The notes under the pieces: generated by a model
The model's database searches: none
Told to the model about the DNA's origin: nothing
Seen by the model: the letters and a program-made list of their open reading frames with translations, nothing else
Assembly (NCBI RefSeq): GCF_000179635.2
Contig: NC_014833.1
Span: 720,001-752,000 of the forward strand
DNA length: 32,000 bases
DNA from: Ruminococcus albus 7 = DSM 20455
GTDB lineage: Bacteria > Bacillota > Clostridia > Oscillospirales > Ruminococcaceae
Direction: 5' to 3'
Program-made: the position numbers and the translations under genes
Shown here: positions 5,453-30,740 of the stretch, in pieces
Layout: every line of letters begins with the position of its first letter
Numbering within the stretch: the first letter of the stretch is position 1

Positions 5453-5559
5453 CAAAAATGGAGAAAAATATATTTTGTAAAATAATTGTAATAATATCCA
5501 ATTGCAGTGCGTGCAAATTTGACACGTTGCTGTAAAGTTTGAAGAAGGGAGAGTTGCTA

Positions 5560-6213
5560 ATGACTTCGGGTGAAGCACACAGCTGTTATTTGAACGCTAA
5601 GTCAAAGTATGAAGATGCGATCGCAGAGAAAAATGCCTGCAGTGACAGCAAATACAGGCAGGAGATACTCAAAAGAGAAGCACAGGTAAGGCTTAATGAT
5701 TTTACAGCTGACAAGACACGTTTTACCACTGCTAAGGATGCCCTTGTAAAGACAAATATCCGTGATAAGGTAGACGATGATCTTAAAAGTGTTCATACAG
5801 AAATGGACGATGCTACCGAATATTTCAAGACGCTGGGTGAATCCAGCACAGGCACTATCGACCTCACCAAGCACATAATGAATGAGGACGACAAGACACA
5901 CAGAAAATCGGTAGTAAACAGGATATTCACTAATCTTGACAATGCAAAGAAAAAGGTGGATGACAAGATTACTGAGCTGGAAGCGAGCATCAAGAAGACA
6001 AACACAGAGATAGATGACGCTGAGGCAGAGATCAGGAGGCTTGAAAACCAGATAAGCTACTGGGACGGTGTCAAGAACGACAAGGCTAATGAGATGGAGA
6101 TGTATCTGTCACTTGAACGCAGGCTTGCTGCGGAGGAAGAAGAAGCCCGCAGAAAGGCTGAGAGAGAGGCTGCTGAAGCAGCCGCTGCTGCAGCCGCTGC
6201 AAACGCAGGGTGA
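5560..6213 (+). CDS. Coiled-coil protein with an Ala/Glu-rich tail; candidate T7SS accessory or helper protein
   Basis: Start moved to ATG 5560 (GAAGGGAGAG upstream). The sequence is heptad-like and highly charged (KKVDDKITELEASIKKTNTEIDDAEAEIRRLENQISYW). It ends AAEEEEARRKAEREAAEAAAAAAAANAG. No TM helix or signal peptide. Confidence 0.65.
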   Translation: MTSGEAHSCYLNAKSKYEDAIAEKNACSDSKYRQEILKREAQVRLNDFTADKTRFTTAKDALVKTNIRDKVDDDLKSVHTEMDDATEYFKTLGESSTGTIDLTKHIMNEDDKTHRKSVVNRIFTNLDNAKKKVDDKITELEASIKKTNTEIDDAEAEIRRLENQISYWDGVKNDKANEMEMYLSLERRLAAEEEEARRKAEREAAEAAAAAAAANAG

Positions 6214-6265
6214 GAACGGATACTGAGATCTGCATATCTCAGAGAATAAATTTGGAGGCGATAAC

Positions 6266-7951
6266 ATGGCTAGTACTATAACGCTTCACAAGACGAAATT
6301 CGACGGTCTGGGAAGTGTACTTGACAAGCTTTGTTCGTGTTTTGGAAACTATGACTCTACTATGAAAGAACTCAAACGTTCTGCAAGCGGTGTTGACAGC
6401 ACGACCTGCGACCTTGAAGCAGTGATTGATGATATTTCCAACTCTGAAGAAAGCAAAGAAGAAAAGGTCAAGAGGGCAAAAGAGTTAAAATCCAAGCTGG
6501 ATACTTTTGTAAAATCTGCAGTACAGCATGAAAAAGATGCGGCTGATGAGATAGTAAAGAAGAAAAAAGATTTCTATAAGAAATACGATTATCTAAGACC
6601 TGACTCGGAAAAGAGCAGATGGGAGAGATTTAAAGAAAAGATCTCAGGTGTAGCAAAAGCTATCAAACAATGGATGTACGAACACCTTGATATGATCATA
6701 GCTGCACTTATAGTGATAGCTGCGATAGTCATCGTGATAGTGTGTCCTGCGGCTGTATGTGCTATACTTTCAATAATAGTAGGTGTTGCATCTGCGCTTA
6801 TGGGTATAGCAGATCTGGTTTGCCTTGCTGCTACGGGTAAAGATGTTGCAACATGGATGGATGAAGACATGGGATGGCATACAGCTAGCAAGATTTGGAA
6901 AGGCGTTGGATTAGGTCTTGATATAGCGAGCGTAATTTTGCCGATCGGTGCCTTGCCGTCTGCGGGAGCGAACGCATATAAAACAACGTTCAAAGAATTA
7001 ATAAGACATCCAATCAAATCACTCAAGGGACTTGGAAACAATATGGCGGTCAAGAATTTCGGAAATATGCTCAGACATCCGATAACGTCCCTCAAGGGAT
7101 TAGGAAAAGCAGGACTTAATACTGTTAAAGAAGCTTTTAAAGACGGTGCTCTAAAGGGCTTTAAAAACCTTGGAGCAGGCGGCTTGAAAATGTTGACAGG
7201 CTATGATGATCTGAAGAAAGGTAAGGCGCTGTTCAACGCATGGAAGAGTGGGCAGCCTGTGGGTGAAACGGCGATCAAATTACTTGGATTGGACAATATT
7301 GCAAGACTTGCCGGTTCATCAAATATGGAACGCTATGATAATATGCTGAACTCAAATAGTGATACCCTTGCTGAAGCAGTGTCGGGCAACAATATTGCTA
7401 CAGATTCGTTTACCCAAATGAAAGTAGATGTCACTACCGGTTCGGGTAATTCCGGTGATGCTTTATTCAATACTCTTAACGGCAATGATGAACTTTCAAG
7501 ACAACTGCTGGACAGCACTGGCGTTGATATGAGAAATGTTTCAAATGGAGATGATCTCTGGGATGCACTGAGAAATAACGGCTTTACGCTTGATACCAGT
7601 GCCGGTGGAGCGGCAGGAACTTCTAATGTATCTGTTGTTCCGTCATGGGCATACAGGGCTACTGACGGCGGAAGTGGTTCATTGCAGCTCATGACTCACA
7701 ACATCAGCGGCGTTAATCATGATTTCCGCCATAGCGTAATGCAGGACTATACAAGCTATATGAATACTATGAATAACATATTCCAGAATTCCTTTGCGAA
7801 CAATTGTGCAGATAATATGTTCAAAAAAGGAATGGAACATTTAATGGATGATGGGATCTTTGGTAATTTAGCCCCTAAACCACATAACCGTGTAGACGAT
7901 ATTATTCAAAGGACGTTCTTCAAAACTGTGGAAGCACCATGGCTTGGATGA
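6266..7951 (+). CDS. LXG-like helical N-terminus + 3 TM segments + variable C-terminal domain; candidate T7SS substrate or membrane toxin
   Basis: RBS GGAGG is 8 nt upstream. Residues 1-140 are helical and charged. TM stretches: IIAALIVIAAIVIVIVCPAAVCAILSIIVGVASALMGIADLVCLAA and a glycine-zipper-like GVGLGLDIASVILPIGALPSAGA. There is a duplicated (I/L)RHPI(K/T)SLKGLG. The Gly/Asn/Ser-rich C-terminal domain has a His-rich patch LMTHNISGVNHDFRHS. Confidence 0.6.
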   Translation: MASTITLHKTKFDGLGSVLDKLCSCFGNYDSTMKELKRSASGVDSTTCDLEAVIDDISNSEESKEEKVKRAKELKSKLDTFVKSAVQHEKDAADEIVKKKKDFYKKYDYLRPDSEKSRWERFKEKISGVAKAIKQWMYEHLDMIIAALIVIAAIVIVIVCPAAVCAILSIIVGVASALMGIADLVCLAATGKDVATWMDEDMGWHTASKIWKGVGLGLDIASVILPIGALPSAGANAYKTTFKELIRHPIKSLKGLGNNMAVKNFGNMLRHPITSLKGLGKAGLNTVKEAFKDGALKGFKNLGAGGLKMLTGYDDLKKGKALFNAWKSGQPVGETAIKLLGLDNIARLAGSSNMERYDNMLNSNSDTLAEAVSGNNIATDSFTQMKVDVTTGSGNSGDALFNTLNGNDELSRQLLDSTGVDMRNVSNGDDLWDALRNNGFTLDTSAGGAAGTSNVSVVPSWAYRATDGGSGSLQLMTHNISGVNHDFRHSVMQDYTSYMNTMNNIFQNSFANNCADNMFKKGMEHLMDDGIFGNLAPKPHNRVDDIIQRTFFKTVEAPWLG

Positions 7952-9863: not shown

Positions 9864-9936
9864 TACCTGCGATCAAATAAAAAACACAGCCGCTTATGCG
9901 GCAGAACAATGAGAGTTTTCAAGGAGGTATTTGAAA

Positions 9937-10290
9937 ATGGCTGAAACAATTCAGGATGTAGGAACAATGGGTACTCAGGGTACTGTGAACATGTCAACTC
10001 AGATGATGACAGATGCGCTGAAGGCTATCGAAGCATACAAGGGAGCTATCGAAACTGCATTTAATAATCTGAACACACAGTACGCTAACGTTACATCAAA
10101 CTTTACAGGTGATGCTGCTAACGGTCTGCAGGAATTCTATACAAACAAGATAGAGGCTATGCTGAAGCAGGAGGACGGCAGCGTATATCAGCTGCTGAAC
10201 GCTCTGAAGGGCTTCTGTGAAGCTGCACGCGATCAGATCCCCGGCGAGACAGGCGTAGACAATGAGCTTGGTAAAGTCAACAGACAGTGA
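9937..10290 (+). CDS. WXG100-family-like protein with a degenerate motif (F-T-G)
   Basis: 117 aa. Very strong RBS AAGGAGG 9 nt upstream. Helix-turn-helix layout, with NFTGDAANGLQEFY at the position and context of W-x-G-x-A. C-terminal tail GVDNELGKVNRQ. Confidence 0.7.
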   Translation: MAETIQDVGTMGTQGTVNMSTQMMTDALKAIEAYKGAIETAFNNLNTQYANVTSNFTGDAANGLQEFYTNKIEAMLKQEDGSVYQLLNALKGFCEAARDQIPGETGVDNELGKVNRQ

Positions 10291-10697: not shown

Positions 10698-10742
10698 GCA
10701 GCAGGTATGTCCTGTGGACATACTGCTGCATACTGCTTTTCA
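10698..10742 (+). terminator. Hairpin plus short T-tract after the esx-like pair (terminator/attenuator)
   Basis: GCAGCAGGTATGTCC (10698-10712), loop TGTG, GGACATACTGCTGC (10717-10729; one bulged base), then ATACTGCTTTT. Confidence 0.45.
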
Positions 10743-10880
10743 ATTATATATGGCAGTAATTTGTCTGATAGCTTTGAAGTTGTTCTGTTTTGTAAGCGGT
10801 GCTTTGTATTCATTAAAGTTATCAGTTTTTTAGTTTTTTGGATAGTATTTCTGTGTAGGCAAATAAATGAGGTGGAATTA

Positions 10881-12044
10881 ATGGCTTTTCGGGTATTGAG
10901 TGAAGAAGAGATAGAGAGATTGACTCCCGATCAGAGAGATATCTATGAATACAATTTAGATATGTATCTTAAAAGAGTACGCTTTGTAGAGAATCTTGAG
11001 AGGTTGGCTAAAGTCAAGTTTGGCGAGATAAAACTGGATCTCAAGCCTATTCCGAAAACGCTCAAGCCGGCTGAAGTTAACTTCAAGGAGATCGAAAAGA
11101 AGCCTGTTGCTGCACCGAAAGTACCGGTACCGCAGGTGAGATCGGGAGAATATAAAGTGCCCGAAATGAAGAAACCCGAGGGTTACAAGGTGTTTGTGCC
11201 TTCTGTCGGTGCACATAAGTATATTGCACCGGAACCTGTAAAGGTCAAGGGCTTCAAGGTAGTGACTCCGGAAGTAAACAAGGGTGAGTATAAAAAGCCC
11301 GAGATGCCTGTGATCGGGGAGATAAAGAAGGTAGTACCCGAAGTAAGCAAGGTAGAATTCAAAAAGCCTGAGATGCCTGCTATCGGGGAGATAAAGAAGG
11401 TAGTACCCGAAGTAAGCAAGGTAGAGTTCAAAAAGCCTGAGATGCCTGCTATCGGGGAGATAAAGAAGGTAGTACCCGAAGTAAGCAAGGTCGAATTCAA
11501 AAAGCCTGAGATGCCTGCTATCGGGGAGATAAAGAAGGTAGTACCCGAAGTAAGCAAGGTCGAATTCAAAAAGCCTGAGATGCCTGCTATCGGGGAGATA
11601 AAGAAGGTAGTACCCGAAGTAAACAAGGTAGAATTCAAAAAGCCCGAGATGCCTGCTATCGGGGAGATAAAGAAGGTAGTACCCGAAGTAAGCAAGGTAG
11701 AGTTCAAAAAGCCTGAGATGCCTGCTATCAGGGAAGTAAAGACGGTAGTGCCCGAGGTAAGCAAGGTTGAATTCAAAAAGCCTGTTAGGGCGGCTGTGCC
11801 TCATGTTAAGGTGGTCGTACCCGAAATATCTCTCGGTGAGGCAGGCAAGATAGCGAGAATGCCTTCGGTACCAGCAGTAGAACCTGTAGTACCCGAAGTG
11901 GCATCGGTAAACTTTGTTAAGCCCGAGATAGCAAAACCGGTGGGCGTAAAAGTAGTAGTGCCAAAGATAAGCGCCGATATCGAGTCGGAAGCTGCAGAGA
12001 TCCTGAAAAAATTGCGGAGTGAGTTAGCGAATGAAAAACAATGA
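10881..12044 (+). CDS. Pro/Glu/Val/Lys-rich tandem-repeat protein (387 aa), translationally coupled to essC
   Basis: Start moved to ATG 10881 (GAGGTGG upstream). The ORF-track start at 10707 would read through the terminator hairpin. There is an about 60-aa helical N-terminal domain, and the rest is 23-aa KKPEMPAIGEIKKVVPEVSKVEF-type repeats. No signal peptide or TM helix. The stop overlaps the essC ATG by 14 nt. Confidence 0.7.
   Translation: MAFRVLSEEEIERLTPDQRDIYEYNLDMYLKRVRFVENLERLAKVKFGEIKLDLKPIPKTLKPAEVNFKEIEKKPVAAPKVPVPQVRSGEYKVPEMKKPEGYKVFVPSVGAHKYIAPEPVKVKGFKVVTPEVNKGEYKKPEMPVIGEIKKVVPEVSKVEFKKPEMPAIGEIKKVVPEVSKVEFKKPEMPAIGEIKKVVPEVSKVEFKKPEMPAIGEIKKVVPEVSKVEFKKPEMPAIGEIKKVVPEVNKVEFKKPEMPAIGEIKKVVPEVSKVEFKKPEMPAIREVKTVVPEVSKVEFKKPVRAAVPHVKVVVPEISLGEAGKIARMPSVPAVEPVVPEVASVNFVKPEIAKPVGVKVVVPKISADIESEAAEILKKLRSELANEKQ
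11292..11774 (+). repeat. Seven near-identical in-frame 69-bp tandem repeats
   Basis: Unit starts at 11292, 11361, 11430, 11499, 11568, 11637 and 11706. Copies differ by a handful of mostly synonymous changes (GTA/GTC, GAA/GAG, CCT/CCC), one Ser/Asn change, and diverged first and last units. Degenerate copies extend to roughly 11150 and 11960. Confidence 0.95.
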
Positions 12045-15000
12045 GATAATGGTTTCGGCACGATTTTCAAAGAAAGACGGAGATGCTTTTGTAAAGTCGC
12101 GCGAGCTGACATTTCTTGTATTGAAAAGCATAACCCTGCGTGAGCTGACAGAGGGAATATTCTACGGTCTGAGGAAAAAAGCCAAAAGTGGTTTCGACTT
12201 CGGTGATGTTGAGCTTTCAATGACTGAGTGCTATGAGATAATGAAGGAGTATTTGCAGAAATATCCTTTTATCAATATTAAGTACAAGTCCATAGGATTT
12301 ACTGATTGCAAGGATATCAAGCAGGAGCTGATCACGGAAAGCTGTATTGATTTCAACAGGATCATCGCAGATTATGACGGCGAGGAGAATGTTAAGATAT
12401 ACGATCTTACGCTGGAAGAACTTGGTATAGTTACGGCTTCGGTGCTTGATTTCAGGCTTGATGCTGTTAAAGCGGCAGGACCATATATATTTACAGACAG
12501 TGATGATAAGCAAATGACATCGCCGTCTTATGTTGTAAAGGAGAAGAATCTGGAATACAACATAAGTACACGTGATATAAACGTTGTTGAGCCTTCGGTG
12601 ATAGAGATAGCACCTGCGGGAGAATATCCCAAGATAGAGGGCGGCGCGCTGGGCGGTTCGATGCTTACATCTATGATATCCATTATGATGGGTGTCGGTA
12701 TGCGTGTCGGTATGCGCTATATGGGCGGAAACTCTATGGCAACAATGGGTAATTCCATGATAATCATGTCGGTGGGAATGGGTCTTGTATCCGCCACGAC
12801 CATGCTTGTAAACGGCATAAGCCAGCGAAGGAAGTCCATACGCAACGCTGATGACTGGGTGAGCAACTACGAATCTTACGTACTGAAAAAACTCAAGCAG
12901 ATAGAGGATTATCAAAGACAGGATATACAGTACATGAAAACTGTATACCCAAATGTGGACAAGCTATTTGACGGTGTGCGAAATGCTTCGGATGCTATAT
13001 TCTCACGTTCGCACAATGATGATGACTATCTTATGATATCCCTTGGACAGTCAAGGCAGATAGAGCCTATGTTCACTATAAGTGCAGAGAAAAAAGATGA
13101 GGGTCTTTCTGAGCCTATAACTTACAGGCTGGAACAGATCGTAAATCCGACGAACGATACTCACTTTGTTTTCAGGATAGATCAGCCCGATGAAAAGGCA
13201 AGGACGAAACTGCGCAAGACACAGCGAAAGCTGCGCAAAAAGGATAAGAAAAAGGGTACGACGGAGCTTAAAAACATCGTTGATGTCAATAACTCTGACG
13301 AGCTGCTGCTTTCGGAGCTGGCTTATGATCTGGCGCACAATGATCCTGCGGACATAAGCACTACGGATAACAGCGCCAACACAAGAAACAGGGTAGGTTT
13401 CAGATATCTGAGGGATTACAGGAATCCCAAGAATCTGCCTCCACTGCTTTTTGAGATGAAAAACTGCGGTGCACTTGGCGTTATATATGATCCTGTCAGC
13501 GAAGAAACGGTGAAGAACGAAGGCGATCCTGCGCTTAATTTTATACGTCATGTGGTGTTTGAACTTTCGTATTATCATTCGCCTGAGAATCTGCAGTTCG
13601 TATTCTTTTTCAAGCGCACGAACGATATTGACGAGCGTGACCGCACTATCGAGAACTACAAGTACCTTCCGCATACAAACGAGTTGTTTGGAAATTCCCT
13701 TTCGCAGTTCGTATTCGATAAGAAGAGCGCCGGTGATGTGTACAGTGCGCTGTTCGGAATAATGAACGAGAGAAGCGGAAGCATAAAGACTGGTGATGAT
13801 AACGGTGACGGCGGCGATGAAAAATCCGAGGATCCGAATTTCACGCAGATAGTCTGCATAATGTTTGACGACTACGATATCAAGGAAACGGTGTTTTCAA
13901 GATTTCTGCCCGAACCCCCGAAGCAGGGTGAGGATTTCAAGAACAAACTGGGATTGTCTTTTATATTCCTGAAAGACAAGAAGGGTATGCTGCCTAAATA
14001 CTGCAGCAGTCTGATAGAGCTTTGCACAGGTCCGAGAGGTGAGCTGACAAGGCGCTACAACGTACTCTCCCGTGAAACACTGGCACACAACAGTAATGCT
14101 GCAGATACAAGCAGTATGGTGGATAAAAAGAGATTTGAGAGCGATTACCTTTTCAAGGATCATTTTCAGTATCTTGATCATAACAACAATACCTGCAGGG
14201 TCGATGTCAAGAAAGATTTCGGCACTGCTTACAGGCAGCTGAGTTCGCTGTACTACAAGCGTATAGCTGAAAACGGCAAGGTGCCTGATGTGGTATCACT
14301 TTTTGAGATATGGGGGATAGACCAGGAGGCTGTCACGGATGACCCTGCACAGAGCAAGGTGTACACTATGATAAAGGACTACTGGGATTCTCCGCAGAAC
14401 GATATCACCAAGGGGCTCAGTGTGCCAATAGGCAAGAACGAGCATGGCGTCACTTATCTGGATATGCACCAGAACGGTGACGGACCTCACGGGCTTGTTG
14501 CGGGTACTACAGGTTCAGGTAAGTCAGAGACACTGATAACCTATGTTATCGGCTGCTGTATGAAATACAGGCCAGATGAGCTGAACTTCATGCTGGTAGA
14601 TATGAAGGGCGGCGGCTTTTCTGACAGACTTGGCAATCTGCCGCATCTGGTCGGCGCTGTTACCAATACCACAGGTGAGGCTGAGGGTATCGCGCCCGAG
14701 TATATGCTGAAGCGATTCCTGGAAACGCTGAATGCCGAGATAAAGAGGCGCGAAGTAGTTCTGAAAGAACTTGATACGGATAATATAGATTCGTATATGA
14801 GGACTAGAAAGACCGTCCTGAAATACCGCGAGGAGATACAGAACGGTACAAGGACGCTGACCTCGATAAAGAAAGAATTCATAAACAAAGATAACAGGAT
14901 AAAAGCTTGTGATCCCGAAAACCCCGAACCCAAACCGCTTTCACATTTGCTTTTGATAGTGGACGAGTTTACGGAGCTGAAAAGATTTTCAAGCGAGAGC

Positions 15001-15564: not shown

Positions 15565-17439
15565 ATGACGGAAAGCATCATAGTTCAACTTGGAAAATAC
15601 GATGTTCCCATTCTGCAGAAGCAGCCTGATTTTGAGGTCGATCTGCTGAAGTCGAACATACTCCTGTTCGGTTCACCCCAGAGCGGCAAAACTAATCTTA
15701 TAAGGCTGATAATCAATATCCTTCACAAGAAGATGAATGTAGAGGACGAGCAGATATTCATACTCGATTTCGGCGGCGCACTGGCTGATTATCAGACTAT
15801 GCCGCTGGTATCAGCGTATTTTGACAATTCCAATGAGGAGTACGTAAAGCGTGTTTTCAAGATACTGGAAACCAAGCTGAAAGAAAACACAAGGGCTTTG
15901 CAGGGTGTGGGATTTGCTGCTAAAAAGGAAGGTCAGCCAAGGCATATAACTTTTTTTATAGACAACTTCAATTCATTCCTTGATGAACCGAGATATCAGG
16001 GCTATCAGGAAAAGTTTGCAAGACTTTGCCGTGACGGTCTGTCGAAAGGTATCTCCGTAGTGGTGACTGCATCGGAGAACAAGGGAATGACTTCATACAT
16101 CAATAACCTTGGGCAGAAGATCGCTCTCAACCTTTCTGATGACAGGTACGGTGAGATCTTCGGCGGAAAGGTATCAAGCATAGGAAACATACCCGGACGC
16201 GGTTTTGCGAATATTACCATGAGACTTCGCGAAAAGGACCGCAAGGGGAAGTATCACGAGATAACGGGTACCTACAACATAAACTCGCCCTATGAGATAC
16301 ACTGCAGCTTCGCAGAGGATATAAACAAGGGTGATTTCAGGATAAATCTCCACAAGAAATTTCAGTACGATGCAGATAAGAAGTGCTTCGGTAAAGAGGT
16401 GGAGAAGTACAAGATATTCCCGCAGACCTTCGGTGTGGCTGAATACTATCATCAGCTGGAGGGCGAACAGGATATAACCGATCCGCAGTATGAAGTTGCT
16501 GTTGGGCTGGACTATGTAGATTTCAAGCCTGTTGTGGTCAATTTCAAGGATTCACGTTTTCTGGCGGTATACGCTAAGCGAGGTGCCGGACAGGATCAGC
16601 TTCTGGACAGGATCGTTACTAACCTGATGGAACATGACACAAGAAAGCTTGTACTCTTTGATGACGGACGCGGTCAGCTGAAGATGCTCAAAGATAAGTT
16701 CCCGGCGGCAACGTACATATCACAATATGTGGCTAGGAGCGAGCTGGAGAAGGAAAAGCCGAAAGAGCCCGAACCTGTGGTGTCCGCGGCATCAGCTATG
16801 ATGGGTGGTAGGACATCGGCAGGCGGAAGCTTTTTCAGCGGGCAGAAGGCTGAGCCGAGATTCGCGAAGCCCCCCGAGATAAGCAAGCCTGTGATACCTC
16901 AGGGATCAAAGCTTTCACCTATGCAGCAGCTTATAAAATACATACACGAGGAATGCGTGGATGTGGGCAACTTTGCGAGCCTGCTTTACACGGGCAAGGA
17001 GTATCTTTCCATGCTGGAGAGAAATCCGAATGTGCCTATAGGGTGCCTGGATACTTTCCGTGACCCGACGGTATTCGTGCTGCACAGCAAGCTGGTATAC
17101 AGCTCGGTGCGGGAAAACAAGCAGTTCCTTGAATACATCATGCCGATACTTTCCGATATGGCGGAGGAAAGAGATTACATATTCATATTCTCAGACGTAA
17201 GGAAAATGTCGGACATCGAGATGAATGATAAGTTCAATACTCTGGTACACACGGCATTCGTGCTTGATAATATCGCGGAGTTCGTATCGGAGAAAGGACA
17301 GAAGACCATATTCGGTGATCTCGATGTAAAGATGCTGAAAGCAGATTACGCGCTCTGTGAAAAGGGCGATGGTTATTATTATGACGTAGAGGCGGACAGC
17401 CTGAAAAAGTTTAAGATGATACAAGAGGAGGATTTCTGA
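15565..17439 (+). CDS. essC: EssC/EccC-like ATPase, part b (one canonical and one degenerate nucleotide-binding domain)
   Basis: Walker A NILLFGSPQSGKTNLI with ITFFIDNFNSF. The second domain has a degenerate P-loop FLAVYAKRGAGQDQLL (no Lys-Ser/Thr). It is in the same reading frame as part a, separated only by TGA-CAG. GGGAGGG lies 10 nt upstream of ATG 15565. Confidence 0.8.
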   Translation: MTESIIVQLGKYDVPILQKQPDFEVDLLKSNILLFGSPQSGKTNLIRLIINILHKKMNVEDEQIFILDFGGALADYQTMPLVSAYFDNSNEEYVKRVFKILETKLKENTRALQGVGFAAKKEGQPRHITFFIDNFNSFLDEPRYQGYQEKFARLCRDGLSKGISVVVTASENKGMTSYINNLGQKIALNLSDDRYGEIFGGKVSSIGNIPGRGFANITMRLREKDRKGKYHEITGTYNINSPYEIHCSFAEDINKGDFRINLHKKFQYDADKKCFGKEVEKYKIFPQTFGVAEYYHQLEGEQDITDPQYEVAVGLDYVDFKPVVVNFKDSRFLAVYAKRGAGQDQLLDRIVTNLMEHDTRKLVLFDDGRGQLKMLKDKFPAATYISQYVARSELEKEKPKEPEPVVSAASAMMGGRTSAGGSFFSGQKAEPRFAKPPEISKPVIPQGSKLSPMQQLIKYIHEECVDVGNFASLLYTGKEYLSMLERNPNVPIGCLDTFRDPTVFVLHSKLVYSSVRENKQFLEYIMPILSDMAEERDYIFIFSDVRKMSDIEMNDKFNTLVHTAFVLDNIAEFVSEKGQKTIFGDLDVKMLKADYALCEKGDGYYYDVEADSLKKFKMIQEEDF

Positions 17440-17777
17440 TGGCAGACGAGTTTGTAGTAGATGACAGCGTATTCAAGTCCGTTGATATAACTAAAATTGC
17501 AGCTTTTATAAATAAAGCACCGGGGCTTGTAGATGAGTTTGAAAAGATCAAAGAAGACTTCAATAATGTCAATAGTGAGCTGCTGGCTATCTGGGTAGGC
17601 GAAGGCGCTGATGAGTACAAGCAGGAAACAGATCATATCCTTGAAAAGATAGGTGACCTGAAAACTACGATAGAAGCGATCAATTCGACTACTCTCGCGG
17701 ATATAAGAAAGCAGTTCAGCGACGCTGACGATGAGCTTGGCAAGTTCAATAGGCAACAAGCCAGTGACGGGGAATAA
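17439..17777 (+). CDS. WXG100 family protein (canonical W-V-G)
   Basis: 112 aa with LLAIWVGEGADEYKQ in the central turn. The ATG overlaps the essC-b stop (TGATG). C-terminal DADDELGKFNRQQASDGE. Confidence 0.8.
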   Translation: MADEFVVDDSVFKSVDITKIAAFINKAPGLVDEFEKIKEDFNNVNSELLAIWVGEGADEYKQETDHILEKIGDLKTTIEAINSTTLADIRKQFSDADDELGKFNRQQASDGE

Positions 17778-17786
17778 CATTCTGTT

Positions 17787-17957
17787 ATGGCAAATGGTTT
17801 TGTGAACAGCACTGACAATTTTCAGCAGGAAGAGGAATTCGACCCGCAGGAAAAAGTTGTACAGGTGCAGAATAAGAAGTATGAGACCGAAAAGAAAGTC
17901 GAAGAGAAATTTCAGGTCAATATATTTGATCTGCTCGGATTTATAGACGAAGACTGA
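17787..17957 (+). CDS. Possible small acidic protein (56 aa), below the ORF-track cutoff
   Basis: MANGFVNSTDNFQQEEEFDPQEKVVQVQNKKYETEKKVEEKFQVNIFDLLGFIDED. It fills the otherwise empty 185-bp gap between the WXG100 gene and the kinase gene. Only a weak GGGGAA lies 12 nt upstream. Confidence 0.3.
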   Translation: MANGFVNSTDNFQQEEEFDPQEKVVQVQNKKYETEKKVEEKFQVNIFDLLGFIDED

Positions 17958-17962
17958 TCGGA

Positions 17963-19900
17963 TTGGAGCATCGCAGCTTTATGCAGATACACGGCACTAA
18001 ATTCACTTACACGATAGATACCAGCTATGAAGATCTGTACAGATACGGCGATGGTTTTATCGCACGCGGTACAGAGAGTATAGTATACAAAGGCATAAGA
18101 GCGGCGGAGGGTATCTCCAGCGAGAACATCCGCATGAGCTGTGTGCTCAAATTCAAGCGCAGAGGTATCAATGACAGGATACTAAGGCGTTTCAAAAGCA
18201 AGGATCTGAAGATATTCAATGATCTTCAGGGCTGCCGTTCGGTCGTAAGGATATACGATCTTATAGAGGATCTTGGTGATTTTTCTATCAGGTTTGAACA
18301 CGTGGCTGAGGGTGAGGAAGAATTCTACATAGACCGTCACGGATTTTTCTGTGTGGTCGAGGAATTTATCGAGGGCAAAACTCTTGAAGAATTCTGTCTG
18401 GAATACGGTGAGTTCCCTCTGGTCATGAGAACAAAGACGGCTGTTACGGGGTATGATGATTACAGCGATGAAAACAAGGAACGTACAAGAAAGTATGTTA
18501 CGGACAATGATTTCTGTCTGCGCTTTCAGAGTGTGATATACAACTTCGCTGTAAAGCTGTGTGATGTGCTGGATTATATGCACAGGAACAGGATACTCCA
18601 CATGGATATAAAGCCCGATAATATCATGATAACAAATGCGGGCGATGAGGTAGTGCTTATTGACTTCGGCAGGGCGAGCTACATGGATTACGGCAAGGAT
18701 TACGTAACGGTGCAGTTCGGCGGAGAAAGTGCCGAGGAGTACGGTACAGTGGGATATGCAGCGCCTGAGGCGTATAATCCCGTGATGGTCCCTCATGCAC
18801 ACTTTACCTCTGAAAATATGAACGGTGAGCTGGAGAATGGCTGTCGTCTGACAGTGGAGAGCGATATCTTTTCACTTGGCGCGACGCTGTGGGAATGCAT
18901 GAATATATTTGTACTCTACATGAACAATACAGAGTACCGCAAGAAATTCTCAAACGGTTATCACTATCAGCGTTTTTTTGATACACCGGCGATGCTTAAT
19001 GAGGATGCATACTGCAACCGTGATCTTTCGCTGGCTTCGGTGCATTTTTATGAAAAACTGGAGCAGATAATCAAAAAGGCGACAAGATCCAGGACCCATG
19101 ATTATTATGACAAGGACAACAAGAATTATTATCACGACTACGCATCGCTGAGGGATGATATAATAGATGCAAAGGAACGTTCACCTGCGGTGCTGAGGAC
19201 TGATGATATAAAGGTGCGTAATTCCTTTACTGTCAGTGCAGTCTTTATGGGGCTGCTGACGACACTTCTGTGTTTTCTCGGATTTTTGTATTTCTTCGGC
19301 GGCTATTTTGCAGAGAAGAAGATAGATACCATTATGGAAAGCTATCAGGTCTCAAAGCATGATGCGCTGAGAAAGGCTGCAAAGGAGCAGATGAAGGCGA
19401 CAGATCCTGAGGGCAGGAAGGGTATTTACGAGAAAATATACGATTTTTATTATAATGAAAATGACGGTGCTGATACAAAGGGCATGAGTGCTGAGGAGGC
19501 TGAGGATCTGGCACAGCTGCTGGATCTGATACCTGACAAGAGGTATTCACGGGAGAAGTTCGATGAGCTTCTTGGCAATACCGACAGGCAGGTACTCATG
19601 GTATTCTCGGAATATGCTGCAGCTGCAGATCTTGATATCAAGGATGACAGCGAATGTATCAGCTATGAGATACTGGAGAAGATATACGAGTCAAGACAGC
19701 CGCGATATGCAAATGATTGCTATGAGGTGCTTGTAAAGTACGGTGACAGGAATGAGTACCGCAATTTACTGGTATACCTTGCGAAGCAGCTGAATACTGA
19801 CGAAAAGATCGACAAGATAGTTGAACAGCAGGAAAGTGACGAGCCTGATGCTATCGTCAGACGTGCTGTCAGGGATAATCTTGAAAGCTTTGAGGAATGA
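17963..19900 (+). CDS. Membrane-anchored Hanks-type Ser/Thr protein kinase (non-RD) with a C-terminal helical domain
   Basis: Kinase subdomains are readable: RGTESIVYKG (G-loop-like), CVLKFK (Lys), VVEEFIEGKTLEEF, ILHMDIKPDNIMI (HxDxKxxN), LIDFGRA (DFG), GTVGYAAPEA (APE) and ESDIFSLGATLWE. Single TM helix VSAVFMGLLTTLLCFLGFLYFFGGYF at about residues 425-450. TTG start at 17963, or ATG at 17981. Confidence 0.8.
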   Translation: MEHRSFMQIHGTKFTYTIDTSYEDLYRYGDGFIARGTESIVYKGIRAAEGISSENIRMSCVLKFKRRGINDRILRRFKSKDLKIFNDLQGCRSVVRIYDLIEDLGDFSIRFEHVAEGEEEFYIDRHGFFCVVEEFIEGKTLEEFCLEYGEFPLVMRTKTAVTGYDDYSDENKERTRKYVTDNDFCLRFQSVIYNFAVKLCDVLDYMHRNRILHMDIKPDNIMITNAGDEVVLIDFGRASYMDYGKDYVTVQFGGESAEEYGTVGYAAPEAYNPVMVPHAHFTSENMNGELENGCRLTVESDIFSLGATLWECMNIFVLYMNNTEYRKKFSNGYHYQRFFDTPAMLNEDAYCNRDLSLASVHFYEKLEQIIKKATRSRTHDYYDKDNKNYYHDYASLRDDIIDAKERSPAVLRTDDIKVRNSFTVSAVFMGLLTTLLCFLGFLYFFGGYFAEKKIDTIMESYQVSKHDALRKAAKEQMKATDPEGRKGIYEKIYDFYYNENDGADTKGMSAEEAEDLAQLLDLIPDKRYSREKFDELLGNTDRQVLMVFSEYAAAADLDIKDDSECISYEILEKIYESRQPRYANDCYEVLVKYGDRNEYRNLLVYLAKQLNTDEKIDKIVEQQESDEPDAIVRRAVRDNLESFEE

Positions 19901-19913
19901 GAGGTGTGATAAA

Positions 19914-20273
19914 TTGAGATTGGGTCTGTTATCGAAGCTGGCAGAACTGCTTGGAGCATATTTTAAGCATGGCAGGAAGCCGTTCCTGATAACGGTGGGC
20001 ATTTCGATGTTCCTGCTCGGTTCGGCAATAGCTGCGTTAAGGTTCACAGGTAAACTTGAACGTATCATAAACGAATGGGATATTCGTTATAATTCCGCTG
20101 CATTGATATTGATGGTGAAGATATTCATCGGTGCGGCAGTTGTGTTTTTCTTGTATGCGGTGTACATCGGCTTGAAAAAGTACAGGAGGTATTCTTCTGT
20201 TGGCAAGCCTTACATGAAAGGCACATCTTACAAGGCATTCAGTAATATATTGTTCAATGAGAATAAAAATTGA
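19914..20273 (+). CDS. Small 2-TM membrane protein (119 aa)
   Basis: TTG 19914 with GAGAGGTG 7 nt upstream. The ORF-track start at 19821 would overlap the kinase gene. TM helices: FLITVGISMFLLGSAIAAL and ALILMVKIFIGAAVVFFLYAVYIGL. Confidence 0.5.
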   Translation: MRLGLLSKLAELLGAYFKHGRKPFLITVGISMFLLGSAIAALRFTGKLERIINEWDIRYNSAALILMVKIFIGAAVVFFLYAVYIGLKKYRRYSSVGKPYMKGTSYKAFSNILFNENKN

Positions 20274-27479: not shown

Positions 27480-27536
27480 TATTGTGATAAACTTTCAGCA
27501 AAAAAATGGTGATAAATTTATGAAAGGGTGGGTTCT

Positions 27537-29370
27537 ATGGATTATAATAAGATCGCAGCTGAGATACTTGATGCGATAGGCGGAAAAGCGAACCTTGCAA
27601 GTGCAGCACACTGCGCTACACGTTTAAGGCTGGTGATAGCTGACAACAGCAAGGTAGAAAAATCTGTGCTGGAAGGCATTGAAGGTGTGAAGGGTGTTTT
27701 CGAGGCATCGGGACAGCTTCAGATAATCCTGGGAACAGGTACTGTTAATAAGGTGTATGCCGAATTCATACAGCTTGCAGGAATAGAAGCTGCTTCAAAG
27801 GAAGATGTGAAGAAAGCGGCAGCTGCAAAGTCTCCCTGGTATAAGAGGGGTATCAAGACACTTGGTGATGTATTCGTACCTATCATACCTGCGATAGTTG
27901 CAACAGGTCTGCTGTGCGGACTGTTTGGCGGTCTTTCAAGAGCGTTCCCGAGTATGGCGGACAGCCACCTGTATACACTGCTGGATATGTTCTCAAATGC
28001 AACGCTGACATTCCTGCCTATACTTATAGCTGTAAGTGCTGCAAAGGTATTCGGTGCAAACATCTATCTGGGTGCGGTCATAGGTATGATAATGATACAC
28101 CCGAGTCTTGTAAATGCATGGGATTCAGTCAATCTGAAGACACTTTGGTCGTGGGGATTCTGGAAAATCAACAATTCAGGTTACCAGGGTCACGTTATAC
28201 CCGTAGTCATCGCGATACTTCTTCTGTCAGTCATTGAAAAATGGCTGCACAAGCACGTACCCGAGATGTTCGATCTCTTCGTTACACCTCTGGTATCCGT
28301 TCTTGTAACAGGATTCCTTACAATGACCGTTATAGGCCCTGTATTTGCTCAGGTCGAATCTTGGGTACTTACCGGTGCACAGTGGCTCATCGCTCTGCCT
28401 TTCGGTATCGGTTCGTTCATTATGGGTGCTGTGTATGCTCCAACTGTAGTAGCAGGCGTTCACCATATGTACAACGCTATCGAGCTTTCCATGCTGGCTG
28501 ACAGCGCCAAAAACATCTGGGATGCCAATCGCTACCGCTGCAAACGTAGCACAGGGTGCTGCTGCACTGGCGGTAGCAGTCAAGACTCAGAACAAGAAGC
28601 TCAAGTCTATGGCTCTCCCTGCATCTCTTTCCGCATTCATGGGTATTACCGAACCTGCTATCTTCGGTGTCAATGTACGTTTCGGCAAGCCTCTGGTAGC
28701 AGGTATGGCAGGCGGTGCCTGCGGCGCAGCAGTAGCTTCTATCATGAACGTTTATGCAACCGCAAGCGGCGTTACAGGTATATTCGGATTCCTGATCACT
28801 ACGGATAGCTTCCTTGGTTATCTGCTCACATTTGCAGTAGCGGCAGTTGTAGCATTCGTTCTTTCGTGGATACTCTATGCTCCCACAAAGGAAAAAGTTC
28901 CTGAAAAGAATTACAAAGACAACTGTGTATACTCTCCTATGAGCGGCAGAGCTATCGCTCTGGAAGAAGTTCCCGATAAGACATTTGCATCAGGCACACT
29001 CGGACAGGGCGCAGCCATTGATCCTATGGATGGCAAGGTAGTTGCACCTGCAGACGGCAAGGTATCCACACTCTTTGATTCTCATCACGCTGTTGGCCTT
29101 ACATTGGATAACGGAATGGAACTGTTTGTACATATCGGTATGAATACTGTTGAACTCGGTGGTGAAGGCTTTGATGCTTTTGTTAAGGAGGGTGACAGGG
29201 TAAAACGCGGAGATACCCTCATAACCTTTGATATCCAGACTCTGAAGAACAAGGGATACAGCGTCATAAGCCCTGTTATCATAACAAATTCCGAGAAATA
29301 CAAGGATATCCGCAGAACAACTGACGGCGGAATAAACTACTTTGATGAACTGCTTGAAACAACCAAGTGA
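27537..29370 (+). pseudogene. scrA: PTS sucrose/beta-glucoside-family EIIBCA, interrupted by a +1 frameshift near 28519-28521
   Basis: EIIB: ASAAHCATRLRL. EIIC: multi-TM, ...GVHHMYNAIELSMLADSAKNIW. The frame then switches and continues as MPIATAANVAQGAAALAV...ITEPAIFGVN. C-terminal EIIA(Glc)-type: DKTFASGTLGQGAAIDP...HAVGLTLDNGMELFVHIGMNTVEL. Removing one G from GGG (28519-28521) gives a seamless NIWMPIATAAN. Confidence 0.8.
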
Positions 29371-29399
29371 TATATCCACACGGACGGTGATATCATTAT

Positions 29400-30740
29400 A
29401 TGAAAAACAATTTCAGACAGAAGCTTCATCTTGAAGCTGAAAGCGGCTGGATAAACGACCCAAACGGCCTTTGCTACTTCAATGGCGAATACCATGTATA
29501 TTTTCAGTATTCGCCTGACAGCCCGATCGGGGAAGGCAGGAAATGCTGGGGACACTGGAAAAGTCCGGATCTTATAAAATGGAGATATGCCGGCATCGTT
29601 TTATATCCTGATACGCCTGAGGACAAGGACGGAGTATATTCGGGCTGCGGATTTGTGAAAGGGGATACTTTGTATCTTTTCTATACAGGCAACGTCAAGG
29701 AAGAAGGCGACCACGATTATGTAACATCGGGGCGCGGTGCAAATGTGATACTTGTTACCACGAAGAACGGACAGGATATGAGTCCGAAGAAGGTGCTTCT
29801 GCGTAATTGTGACTATCCAGCAGACTGCTCGTGCCATGTGCGTGACCCTAAGGTATGGGAAGAACACGGTAAATACTATATGGTGCTTGGGGCAAGGACT
29901 TTGCAGGACAAGGGCTGTGTACTGAAGTACGGATCAGATGATCTTGAACATTGGGCATAAATCGGAAGATATTCGGCTGAGGATATGGGTTATATGTGGG
30001 AATGTCCCGATGAGTTCACTATCGGGAAGAACAGGTTCCTGGGGTTATCTCCGCAGGGACTGGTACATAGTAAGTATATCCATCAGAATGTATACAGCTC
30101 CGGATATTTCAGTCTGGCGAACGGTAGAACAGAAAATTTCCGCGAATGGGACAAGGGATTTGATATTTATGCCCCACAGACCTTTGAAGCCCCTGACGGC
30201 AGAAGGATATTTATCGGCTGGGAAGGTATTGGTGATATACCTTACAGCAATCCGACTGTAGGATGCGGCTGGCAGCACTGCCTGACTCTTCCGCGGGAAC
30301 TGACAGTAGATGATAATGGAGATATCCTTCAGAATCCTGTAAGGGAACTGGAGACTCTCCGAAGAAAAGAAAAAGAGATAAACAGCGGTGACAGTATACA
30401 GACAATTCTTCCGTTTGAACTCAAAGGGCGTACAGATAAGGAATTCAAAGTCACTCTTGAAGGCATACTAACTCTGGAATACAAGAACGGTGAGGTCATG
30501 CTTAGCTTTATTTCGGAAAATGCAGGCTGCGGAAGATATGTGAGGTATGCACAACTTGAAAGCTGCAGGGATATACGCCTGATAGCTGACACCTCATCGG
30601 CGGAGGTGTATCTTAACGGCGGAAAGATCGTATTTTCAACCAGGATGTATCCGGAGGATACCGATATATCCCTTTTGGTGGAAGGTGTAAGCGGTTCGGT
30701 GTATGAACTTGAGGGGATAGAGGTGATAAACGATGAATGA
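29400..30740 (+). pseudogene. scrB: GH32 sucrose-6-phosphate hydrolase interrupted by an in-frame TAA (29958-29960)
   Basis: GH32 motifs WINDPNG, RDPKV and MWECPD are present. The two ORF-track pieces (29400..29960 and 29985..30740) are in the same frame: ...DLEHWA*IGRYSAEDMGYMWECPD. Confidence 0.8.

Follow-up and report, generated by a model that had tools for sequence, protein, structure and literature searches.

Is a membrane protein kinase encoded beside an EssC-type ATPase a catalytically active form of EssB, the pseudokinase of type VII secretion systems (T7SSs), or a kinase of another kind? The question is raised by a locus of Ruminococcus albus 7 (DSM 20455), which lies in a 32,000-nucleotide stretch of contig NC_014833.1 (positions 720,001 to 752,000; assembly GCF_000179635.2) that we analyzed as a whole and refer to as the window, numbered from its first letter. 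An initial annotation made from the letters alone had offered two readings of this kinase: an ancestral-like, enzymatically active EssB or an agent of phospho-regulation of secretion. Our analysis indicates that the protein is probably a bitopic Hanks-type component of a variant T7SS-like cluster found in R. albus and many Clostridia, and that in architecture and context it matches the TsxD type. TsxD kinases come from the eight further T7SS arrangements, T7SSc to T7SSj, described by Garrett, Higginson and Palmer in 2024; T7SSc, T7SSd, T7SSe and T7SSj each carry such a membrane Ser/Thr kinase (TscD, TsdD, TseD and TsjD, respectively), which combines a topology like that of EssB with a conserved active site (PMC11217815). 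The central idea of a T7SS-linked active kinase with EssB topology is therefore already published, and our finding overturns nothing in that general concept.

The kinase open reading frame (ORF) runs for 645 amino acids from a TTG codon (Table 1). Because database protein P0001, of 639 amino acids, is 100% identical to the product of the in-frame ATG at 17981, we take that codon as the likely start, and residue numbers below follow the 639-residue form unless the 645-residue form is stated. All five catalytic motifs quoted in the initial annotation are present, and the Pfam model Pkinase (PF00069) matches with E = 6.5e-21 (75 bits against a cut-off of 31.7), followed by PK_Tyr_Ser-Thr (PF07714) with E = 5e-12. 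The EssB-like topology was also read correctly. A hydropathy scan finds a sole transmembrane (TM)-like segment at residues 418–436 (424–442 in the 645-residue numbering), and a 203-residue helical domain follows it, modeled with a predicted local distance difference test score (pLDDT) of 92.6. In the full-length AlphaFold2 (AF2) model, built from an alignment of 116 homologues (pLDDT of 83.3, predicted TM-score (pTM) of 0.69), a bilobal kinase domain is joined by a long helix (residues 387–453) that holds the TM segment to the all-helical C-terminal domain. The cytoplasmic kinase domain of this bitopic protein is predicted to span about residues 1–375, with large insertions in the N-lobe and in the activation segment. 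The closest named homologue is another R. albus protein, at 87% identity.

The active site is preserved throughout the family. In the conservation alignment, which comprises 116 full-length homologues at 35–87% identity, the glycine-loop residues, K57, H207, D209, K211, P212, N214, D228-F229-G230, P262-E263 and D295 (the last in the DIFSLG motif, residues 295–300) are all invariant, and T256 is at least 90% conserved. A one-genome-per-species scan detected kinase relatives in 211 genomes, from which 79 loci were fetched. Among the 90 kinase copies translated from these loci, 84 have an intact ten-position catalytic signature; of the remaining six, three are cut off by the ends of their contigs and three represent two degenerate relatives, P0159 and P0170. 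K57 is kept in 87 of the 90 copies, the other three being truncated ahead of that column. Across the 79 species-level loci, all complete copies save those two relatives therefore retain the catalytic residues. The catalytic loop is of the non-RD kind (HMD or HLD) across the family, which is compatible with kinase activity, and the lysine of HxDxKxxN together with the GT ahead of APE gives the pattern of a Ser/Thr kinase. The invariance of catalytic residues in such diverged homologues implies an active site under selection, which we read as the probable mark of an enzyme under purifying selection rather than of a pseudokinase.

The surroundings of the kinase are conserved as well. Its loci come from Ruminococcus, Lachnospiraceae, Oscillospiraceae, Acetivibrio, Ruminiclostridium and others, and the named hosts are almost all Clostridia. 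We scored linkage by tblastn with the window proteins, taking the upstream counts from the 54 loci that have at least 7 kb of upstream sequence. Linkage to EssC in other genomes, which the initial annotation had regarded as decisive for its proposal, is common: both ATPase genes lie upstream on the same strand in 40 of these 54 loci, with no more than 1.2 kb between the ATPase end and the kinase start in 28 of the 40, and they lie just downstream of the kinase in two more (42/54 linked in all). A homologue of the giant protein with immunoglobulin (Ig)-like domains follows the kinase in 62 of the 67 loci that have enough downstream sequence. The same gene order is found at about 40% identity in loci L001–L003, L085 and L086. 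Overall, the kinase is more tightly tied to the small membrane protein and the giant Ig-like protein than to the ATPase/WXG100 block.

Polymorphic-toxin genes (PT-HINT, Hint_2, LHH, Tox-GHH and PoNi) and likely immunity genes occur in the flanks or the interior of L001–L003 and L086, and such cargo sometimes sits between the ATPase/WXG100 block and the kinase block. These neighbors are consistent with a role in interbacterial competition, and their presence near a system spread through fibre-degrading rumen and gut Clostridia suggests that the system is likely to matter for competition there.

Three contigs that were binned as Coriobacteriia (L050, L052 and L057) also carry the kinase. The L057 protein is about 70% identical to proteins of Oscillospiraceae, Ruminiclostridium and Acetivibrio, and the name Olsenella is absent from its matches; the three contigs are therefore probably misbinned or the result of recent transfer. 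For the same reason we dropped a link through them to TsdD of Olsenella.

The initial annotation placed the kinase directly after essC and a WXG100 gene. This order is correct, except that essC is divided into two genes and a 56-codon ORF precedes the kinase. The first ATPase gene encodes a non-FHA N-terminal domain, a membrane region and an FtsK-type domain with a Walker A motif (GTTGSGKS) at residue 825; the second has its Walker A motif (GSPQSGKT) at residue 36 and covers positions 784–1154 of the TIGR03928 model. The break thus falls between the first and the second ATPase domains (model positions up to 761 and from 784, respectively). In relatives, each of the five gene-annotated loci that cover the ATPase likewise has two ATPase genes, with products of 1124 and 581 residues in L001 and of 1176 and 626 residues in L085, and the first of the two (EssCa) stops after 1069–1184 residues in 46 of 47 loci. 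Because relatives at about 40% identity share the split, we regard it as a conserved feature and not as a frameshift. A similar arrangement is that of EccCa/EccCb, two-gene ATPases whose parts have separate NCBIfam models.

The approximately 200 residues of the ATPase that precede the membrane segment (12031–12630) are strongly conserved among 36 orthologues, in which the motifs read MKNNEIMIS.RF ... LSFLVLKDITLKAFIEALYYGLKK ... LGFVTSS ... EYNISTRRLNVIEPS. None of the 36 gave an FHA match in Pfam at E ≤ 10 in this sequence-level test, and the profile of the domain matched no PDB sequence. Two weak matches to UAE_UbL (E = 0.031) fall within it, and its strand-helix-strand pattern, judged by eye, could resemble the ubiquitin fold of YukD and EsaB. 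If the domain were ubiquitin-like, this could explain the missing TsxB gene.

For a kinase that is part of this T7SS-like cluster, we envisage the following mechanism. The ectodomain would dock on, or sense, the envelope module made up of the small membrane protein and the giant Ig-like protein, and the cytoplasmic domain would phosphorylate Ser/Thr residues on itself or on secretion components, gating assembly or export. The protein might also provide a structural, EssB-like scaffold, an idea based on the pseudokinase relative P0159 discussed below. Candidate signal partners encoded in the locus are the N-terminal domain of the ATPase, the repeat protein and the small acidic protein. The phospho-regulation of secretion put forward in the initial annotation stands as a hypothesis, one that Garrett and colleagues also advance for their own T7SS-linked kinases (PMC11217815).

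Several observations weigh against assigning the kinase to a secretion machine regulated in this way. The phospho-switch partners of T7SSd, T7SSe and T7SSj appear to be missing from the R. albus locus: Pfam YukC/EssB, FHA and PP2C have no match in any window ORF scanned, and PP2C, FHA and DUF6382 have none in these ORFs or in the annotated relatives L001–L003, L085, L086 and L089. The kinase must then act on something else or through housekeeping partners. The WXG100 assignments rest on hidden Markov model scores below threshold; the gene ahead of the kinase block, for instance, matches TIGR03930 with E = 6e-5 and Pfam WXG100 with E = 0.0067, both below the curated cut-offs. Our literature search found no biochemical tests of T7SS-linked kinases of this type, so that catalysis and substrates are inferred. 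Finally, 12 of the 54 loci have no ATPase within 10 kb of the kinase; R. albus 8 (L007), a metagenome-assembled genome of R. albus (L090/L091), Acetivibrio (L004/L005) and L057 carry a stand-alone trio consisting of kinase, small membrane protein and giant Ig-like protein. The trio is thus a separable module, which may not depend on the ATPase.

These last observations are also the main argument for regarding the trio as an independent surface signaling or adhesion module that is often adjacent to the secretion machinery without being part of it. In the stand-alone loci the trio sits among unrelated genes, the link to the giant protein (62/67) is tighter than that to the ATPase (42/54), and toxin cargo often separates the ATPase/WXG100 block from the kinase block. 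Against this interpretation, about 78% of loci have the ATPase/WXG100 genes adjacent and in the same orientation, across several Clostridia families and at only 31–41% kinase identity, and the same set of kinase, small membrane protein and giant protein (D, H and I in the published nomenclature) recurs with TsxC ATPases in T7SSd and T7SSe. We therefore consider a wholly independent module rather unlikely.

An orthologue of EssB/YukC with kept or ancestral catalytic activity, the other reading in the initial annotation, is unlikely. EssB/YukC (PDB 4ANO, 2YNQ and 6Z0F; PMC3526858, PMC3694306 and PMC9600267) is likewise bitopic, with a kinase-like cytoplasmic fold, one TM helix and a place in a T7SS locus. 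Nevertheless, Pfam YukC is absent from the window kinase at E ≤ 0.01 and from all 24 kinase family members examined at E ≤ 5. Searched against PDB sequences, the single protein and the family profile gave canonical kinases only, and no EssB/YukC, among the 60 matches listed. With the full-length model, the top Foldseek match in the PDB is Mycobacterium tuberculosis PknB (5u94; E = 1.4e-9, target TM-score of 0.76), followed by other PknB entries, receptor tyrosine kinases and Staphylococcus aureus Stk1 (1o6y and 9ymt are among the closest), and EssB/YukC does not occur among the 50 matches listed.

The ectodomain gives the same answer. A Foldseek search of the PDB with the model of residues 437–639 returned no match at E ≤ 1e-3, and EssB/YukC is absent among the 50 matches listed, of which the best are 14-3-3 proteins, designed helical repeats and a TPR protein, all with TM-scores of at most 0.34. 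The ectodomain profile matches no PDB sequence and only 61 cluster representatives out of 1.84 billion proteins. In each of the nine full-length bacterial carriers scanned, a Pkinase domain lies N-terminal to the ectodomain, and YukC is found in none. The helical-repeat ectodomain thus appears specific to this kinase family. A helical fold has been reported for the C-terminal segment of Geobacillus thermodenitrificans EssB (PMC3694306), but the ectodomains of EssB/YukC and of the R. albus kinase are unrelated by sequence and Foldseek tests.

Active site, partner and gene position also distinguish the two proteins. The catalytic motifs of EssB are all degraded (LDMR, Ytfvlapd and TRG; PMC12599244), whereas those of the R. 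albus kinase are all intact. The EssB pseudokinase domain binds the FHA domains of EssC in T7SSb (PMC11217815), and EssC carries them at its N-terminus, where we detect no FHA domain in the R. albus ATPase. The statement that the kinase occupies the EssB position is loosely put. In T7SSb loci, essB/yukC is immediately upstream of essC/yukB (esaB-essB-essC in S. aureus and yukD-yukC-yukB in Bacillus subtilis). Here, the kinase gene is downstream of the ATPase, whose immediate upstream neighbor is the repeat-protein gene. What the kinase shares with EssB seems to be limited to topology and a generic kinase fold.

One further result bears on descent from an active kinase. Two distant members of the family, found through the ectodomain search, have damaged active sites. 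In P0159 (616 residues, 28% identical; L089:10001-11851), LHLNLKPEHIM and LIGFDK stand in place of the family's LHxDIKPxNIM and LIDFGR, so that the catalytic Asp, the Asn that binds Mg and the Asp of DFG are all gone. Its locus is nonetheless fully syntenic with the window cluster; in order, L089 encodes a TPR protein, proteins of 104, 115, 102 and 412 residues, ATPases of 1198 and 614 residues, proteins of 112 and 66 residues, P0159 and a protein of 126 residues. The second relative, P0170 (HLD..H and GFG; L087/L088), lies in an unrelated gene context. The retention of P0159, despite its nonfunctional active site, by an otherwise intact cluster speaks for a structural role beside catalysis, and a lineage that lost catalysis while keeping the locus separates the scaffold role from the enzymatic one. 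On the strength of one metagenomic contig, the kinase-to-pseudokinase change postulated for EssB apparently can occur in a T7SS-linked kinase family. The presence of a pseudokinase in this same slot is an argument for kinship with EssB, to be set against the search results, ectodomain and gene order described above.

The pairing of a kinase with an FtsK-like ATPase is common to the T7SS-like locus and to the anti-phage system MADS, which has a Ser/Thr kinase and an FtsK-like ATPase. PADLOC assigns mad6 to the kinase (E = 9.5e-27) and mad8 to the two ATPase genes (8e-23 and 8e-18), and NCBIfam antiphage_MADS6 also matches (E = 1.4e-9). These PADLOC matches are confined to the generic kinase and ATPase domains; the MADS6 score is 37 bits against a cut-off of 460, whereas the ATPase matches EssC with 388 bits (E = 1e-115). 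Six other window proteins scanned had no PADLOC match, methyltransferase and nuclease families were not seen in general Pfam scans of the window, and the kinase family is surrounded by WXG100-like genes, toxin cargo (PT-HINT, LHH and Tox-GHH) and the giant Ig protein, all of which makes an anti-phage system of this kind highly improbable. That a housekeeping cell-wall kinase of the PASTA type (PknB/Stk1/PrkC) lies here by chance is scarcely credible: PknB and Stk1 are the best structural matches and PknB_PASTA_kin is the top NCBIfam match, but the latter (NF033483) reaches 48 bits, where the cut-off is 450, and is limited to residues 193–270, there are no PASTA repeats, and the all-helical, family-restricted ectodomain comes with conserved T7SS-like synteny.

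The genes around the kinase form a compact cluster, all on the plus strand with short gaps or overlaps between them (Table 1). The TPR gene is conserved at the cluster's 5′ end across several Clostridia families, and genes for small helical and WXG100-like proteins come next. For the 104-residue protein, most loci outside R. albus show tblastn matches (35–51% identity) at the corresponding position. The probable start of the repeat protein is M59 of ORF 10707–12044; homologues begin MAFRVLSEEE or VAFKILSQEE, so the first 58 codons of that ORF are probably untranslated. This protein contains 7.6 tandem copies of a 23-residue unit, KVVPEVSKVEFKKPEMPAIGEIK (Tandem Repeats Finder period of 69 bp, 11256–11784, 93% matches), each unit with a single Ser, and has no family match in any library scanned; a gene is conserved at its position in other loci, with low sequence identity. 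The WXG100 gene keeps its position ahead of the kinase block in most loci, and genes for proteins of 49–66 residues fill the position of the 56-codon ORF in L001, L085, L086 and L089. Directly 3′ of the kinase, the small membrane protein is poorly conserved in sequence, with genes for 103–127 residues in seven gene-annotated loci and a 119-codon ORF in L057. The giant protein matches the Pfam families Big_13 (2e-15), Big_3_4 and Big_3_2, and ends in a TM helix (residues 1932–1950) and a basic tail.

Table 1. Coordinates of the kinase gene, its sequence features and the surrounding cluster genes (window numbering).
Feature	Coordinates	Strand	Basis and remarks
TPR protein, cytoplasmic, 508 aa	7992..9518	+	Pfam TPR families; first conserved cluster gene
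Conserved small protein, 117 aa	9472..9825	+	tblastn matches at the same position in most loci; no Pfam match
Second WXG100-like protein	9931..10290	+	Pfam WXG100 E = 7.6e-6, 26.5 bits (cut-off 27.3); position conserved
Conserved small protein, 104 aa	10315..10629	+	No Pfam match
Repeat protein, overlaps ATPase gene	10881..12044	+	Probable start M59 of ORF 10707-12044
EssC/EccC-type ATPase, first gene, 1176 aa	12031..15561	+	TIGR03928 E = 1e-115, 388 bits; Pfam FtsK_SpoIIIE 1e-24
EssC/EccC-type ATPase, second gene, 624 aa	15565..17439	+	TIGR03928 E = 7e-38; TIGR03925 EccCb 2.6e-30
WXG100-family protein, 112 aa, WVG motif	17439..17777	+	Overlaps ATPase stop by 1 nt
Small acidic ORF, 56 aa, between WXG100 gene and kinase	17787..17957	+	No Pfam match
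Kinase ORF	17963..19900	+	645 aa counted from TTG 17963
Membrane Ser/Thr protein kinase	17981..19900	+	639 aa from in-frame ATG; Pfam, AF2 and Foldseek
Glycine-rich ATP-binding loop GFIARGTESIVYKG	18053..18094	+	Family-specific variant; invariant G25, A28, G30, E32, S33, V35
Beta-3 lysine K57 in CVLKFK (54-59)	18149..18151	+	Invariant, 116 homologues
Catalytic loop HMDIKPDN (207-214)	18599..18622	+	H207, D209, K211, P212, N214 invariant
DFG, Mg-binding Asp (228-230)	18662..18670	+	D228, F229, G230 invariant
GYAAPE (258-263), end of activation segment, P+1 loop	18752..18769	+	G258, P262, E263 invariant
Single TM helix VSAVFMGLLTTLLCFLGFL	19232..19288	+	Residues 418-436; Kyte-Doolittle mean 2.25 over 19 residues
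Extracytoplasmic helical-repeat domain, 203 aa, 12 helices	19289..19897	+	AF2 pLDDT 92.6, pTM 0.84
Small membrane protein, about 119 aa from TTG 19914	19914..20273	+	Two hydrophobic segments; TsxH-like slot
Giant surface protein, about 1954 aa	20291..26155	+	Signal-peptide-like N-terminus, bacterial Ig-like domains; TsxI-like

Upstream of the cluster, positions 5539–7951 encode a coiled-coil protein of 224 residues and a 561-residue protein with a helical N-terminus, a hydrophobic segment at residues 143–161 and a weaker one at 213–231. Many related loci encode a homologue of the 561-residue protein, often with the WXG100 gene on one side of it and the kinase on the other. It has no match to LXG or toxin families, and we list it as a candidate secreted membrane-active effector. 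Downstream, positions 27528–30740 hold a locus of sucrose/fructan type (LacI regulator, phosphotransferase system (PTS) EIIBC-EIIA, GH32, PfkB kinase and HPr). The PTS EIIC is divided over the overlapping ORFs 27528–28808 and 28522–29370, and the GH32 hydrolase over 29400–29960 and 29985–30740; these divisions may be frameshifts, pseudogenes or sequencing errors.

A family with more than 100 diverged homologues and an invariant active site is a clean case for studying what T7SS-linked kinases do. A more specific proposal is that the cluster represents a T7SS subtype outside the published T7SSa to T7SSj, spread through rumen and gut Clostridia and defined by a split ATPase with a conserved, non-FHA and possibly ubiquitin-like N-terminal domain, by the lack of a dedicated phosphatase or FHA reader and by an active non-RD kinase that has a family-specific helical-repeat ectodomain and is tightly tied to a giant Ig protein, in a family that shows a route from active kinase to EssB-like scaffold. 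We make this proposal tentatively, as a possibility somewhat short of probable. A literature search for a Ruminococcus T7SS kinase or for later T7SS subtype names found nothing relevant.

Among known systems, the PASTA kinases PknB, Stk1 and PrkC offer the closest solved kinase domain and are likewise Hanks-type bitopic receptor kinases. The R. albus kinase differs from them in having no PASTA repeats, a non-RD loop, a family-specific glycine loop and a T7SS-linked context in place of a cell-division operon. Type VI secretion provides an analogy of mechanism. In Pseudomonas, PpkA, PppA and Fha1 exert control over type VI secretion by threonine phosphorylation. There too, a membrane Hanks-type kinase lies inside the secretion cluster and is thought to switch on assembly or firing; the machine is another one, no FHA reader or phosphatase was found at the R. 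albus locus, and the likeness extends to mechanism only. TssL phosphorylation controls type VI secretion in Agrobacterium (cited in PMC11217815), and type VI threonine phosphorylation is also cited in the proposal that FHA-read phosphorylation controls T7SS assembly or activity (PMC11217815).

The nearest counterparts are the published T7SS variants. T7SSd comprises the WXG100 protein TsdA, the ATPase TsdC with FHA domains, the kinase TsdD with a helical C-terminal region, the small TM protein TsdH and TsdI, whose 1654 residues comprise a Sec signal, Ig-like domains and, at the C-terminus, a TM helix (PMC11217815). T7SSe adds a second WXG100 protein, a ubiquitin-like protein, a PP2C phosphatase, a DUF6382-FHA protein and a further small TM protein, and the phosphatase (TseF) and the DUF6382-FHA protein (TseJ) are present at all of its loci (PMC11217815). 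TsdC, TseC and TsjC carry FHA domains with phosphothreonine-binding motifs; T7SSd has been reported in Actinomycetota only and T7SSe in Bacillota (PMC11217815).

The R. albus-like locus departs from these systems in several respects. It occurs in Clostridia, in contrast to the Actinomycetota of T7SSd; its ATPase is made by two genes and has an N-terminus without an FHA signature, unlike those of T7SSd, T7SSe and T7SSj; and, compared with T7SSe, it has no PP2C (F), FHA protein (J) or recognizable ubiquitin-like protein (B), small ORFs of the window and of the annotated relatives giving no YukD-like match. Relative to T7SSd and T7SSe, it has extra conserved genes for the TPR protein, the repeat protein and the 56-residue protein (49–66 residues in relatives). 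As far as published descriptions allow comparison, the kinase matches TsxD in its N-terminal cytoplasmic kinase domain, conserved active site, one TM helix and helical extracytoplasmic C-terminus, and its gene is paired with a TsxC-type ATPase and WXG100 genes. The locus has two WXG100-like genes, with scores below the cut-offs, and the A, C, D, H and I components are all present in order. In gene content, it most resembles T7SSd and T7SSe.

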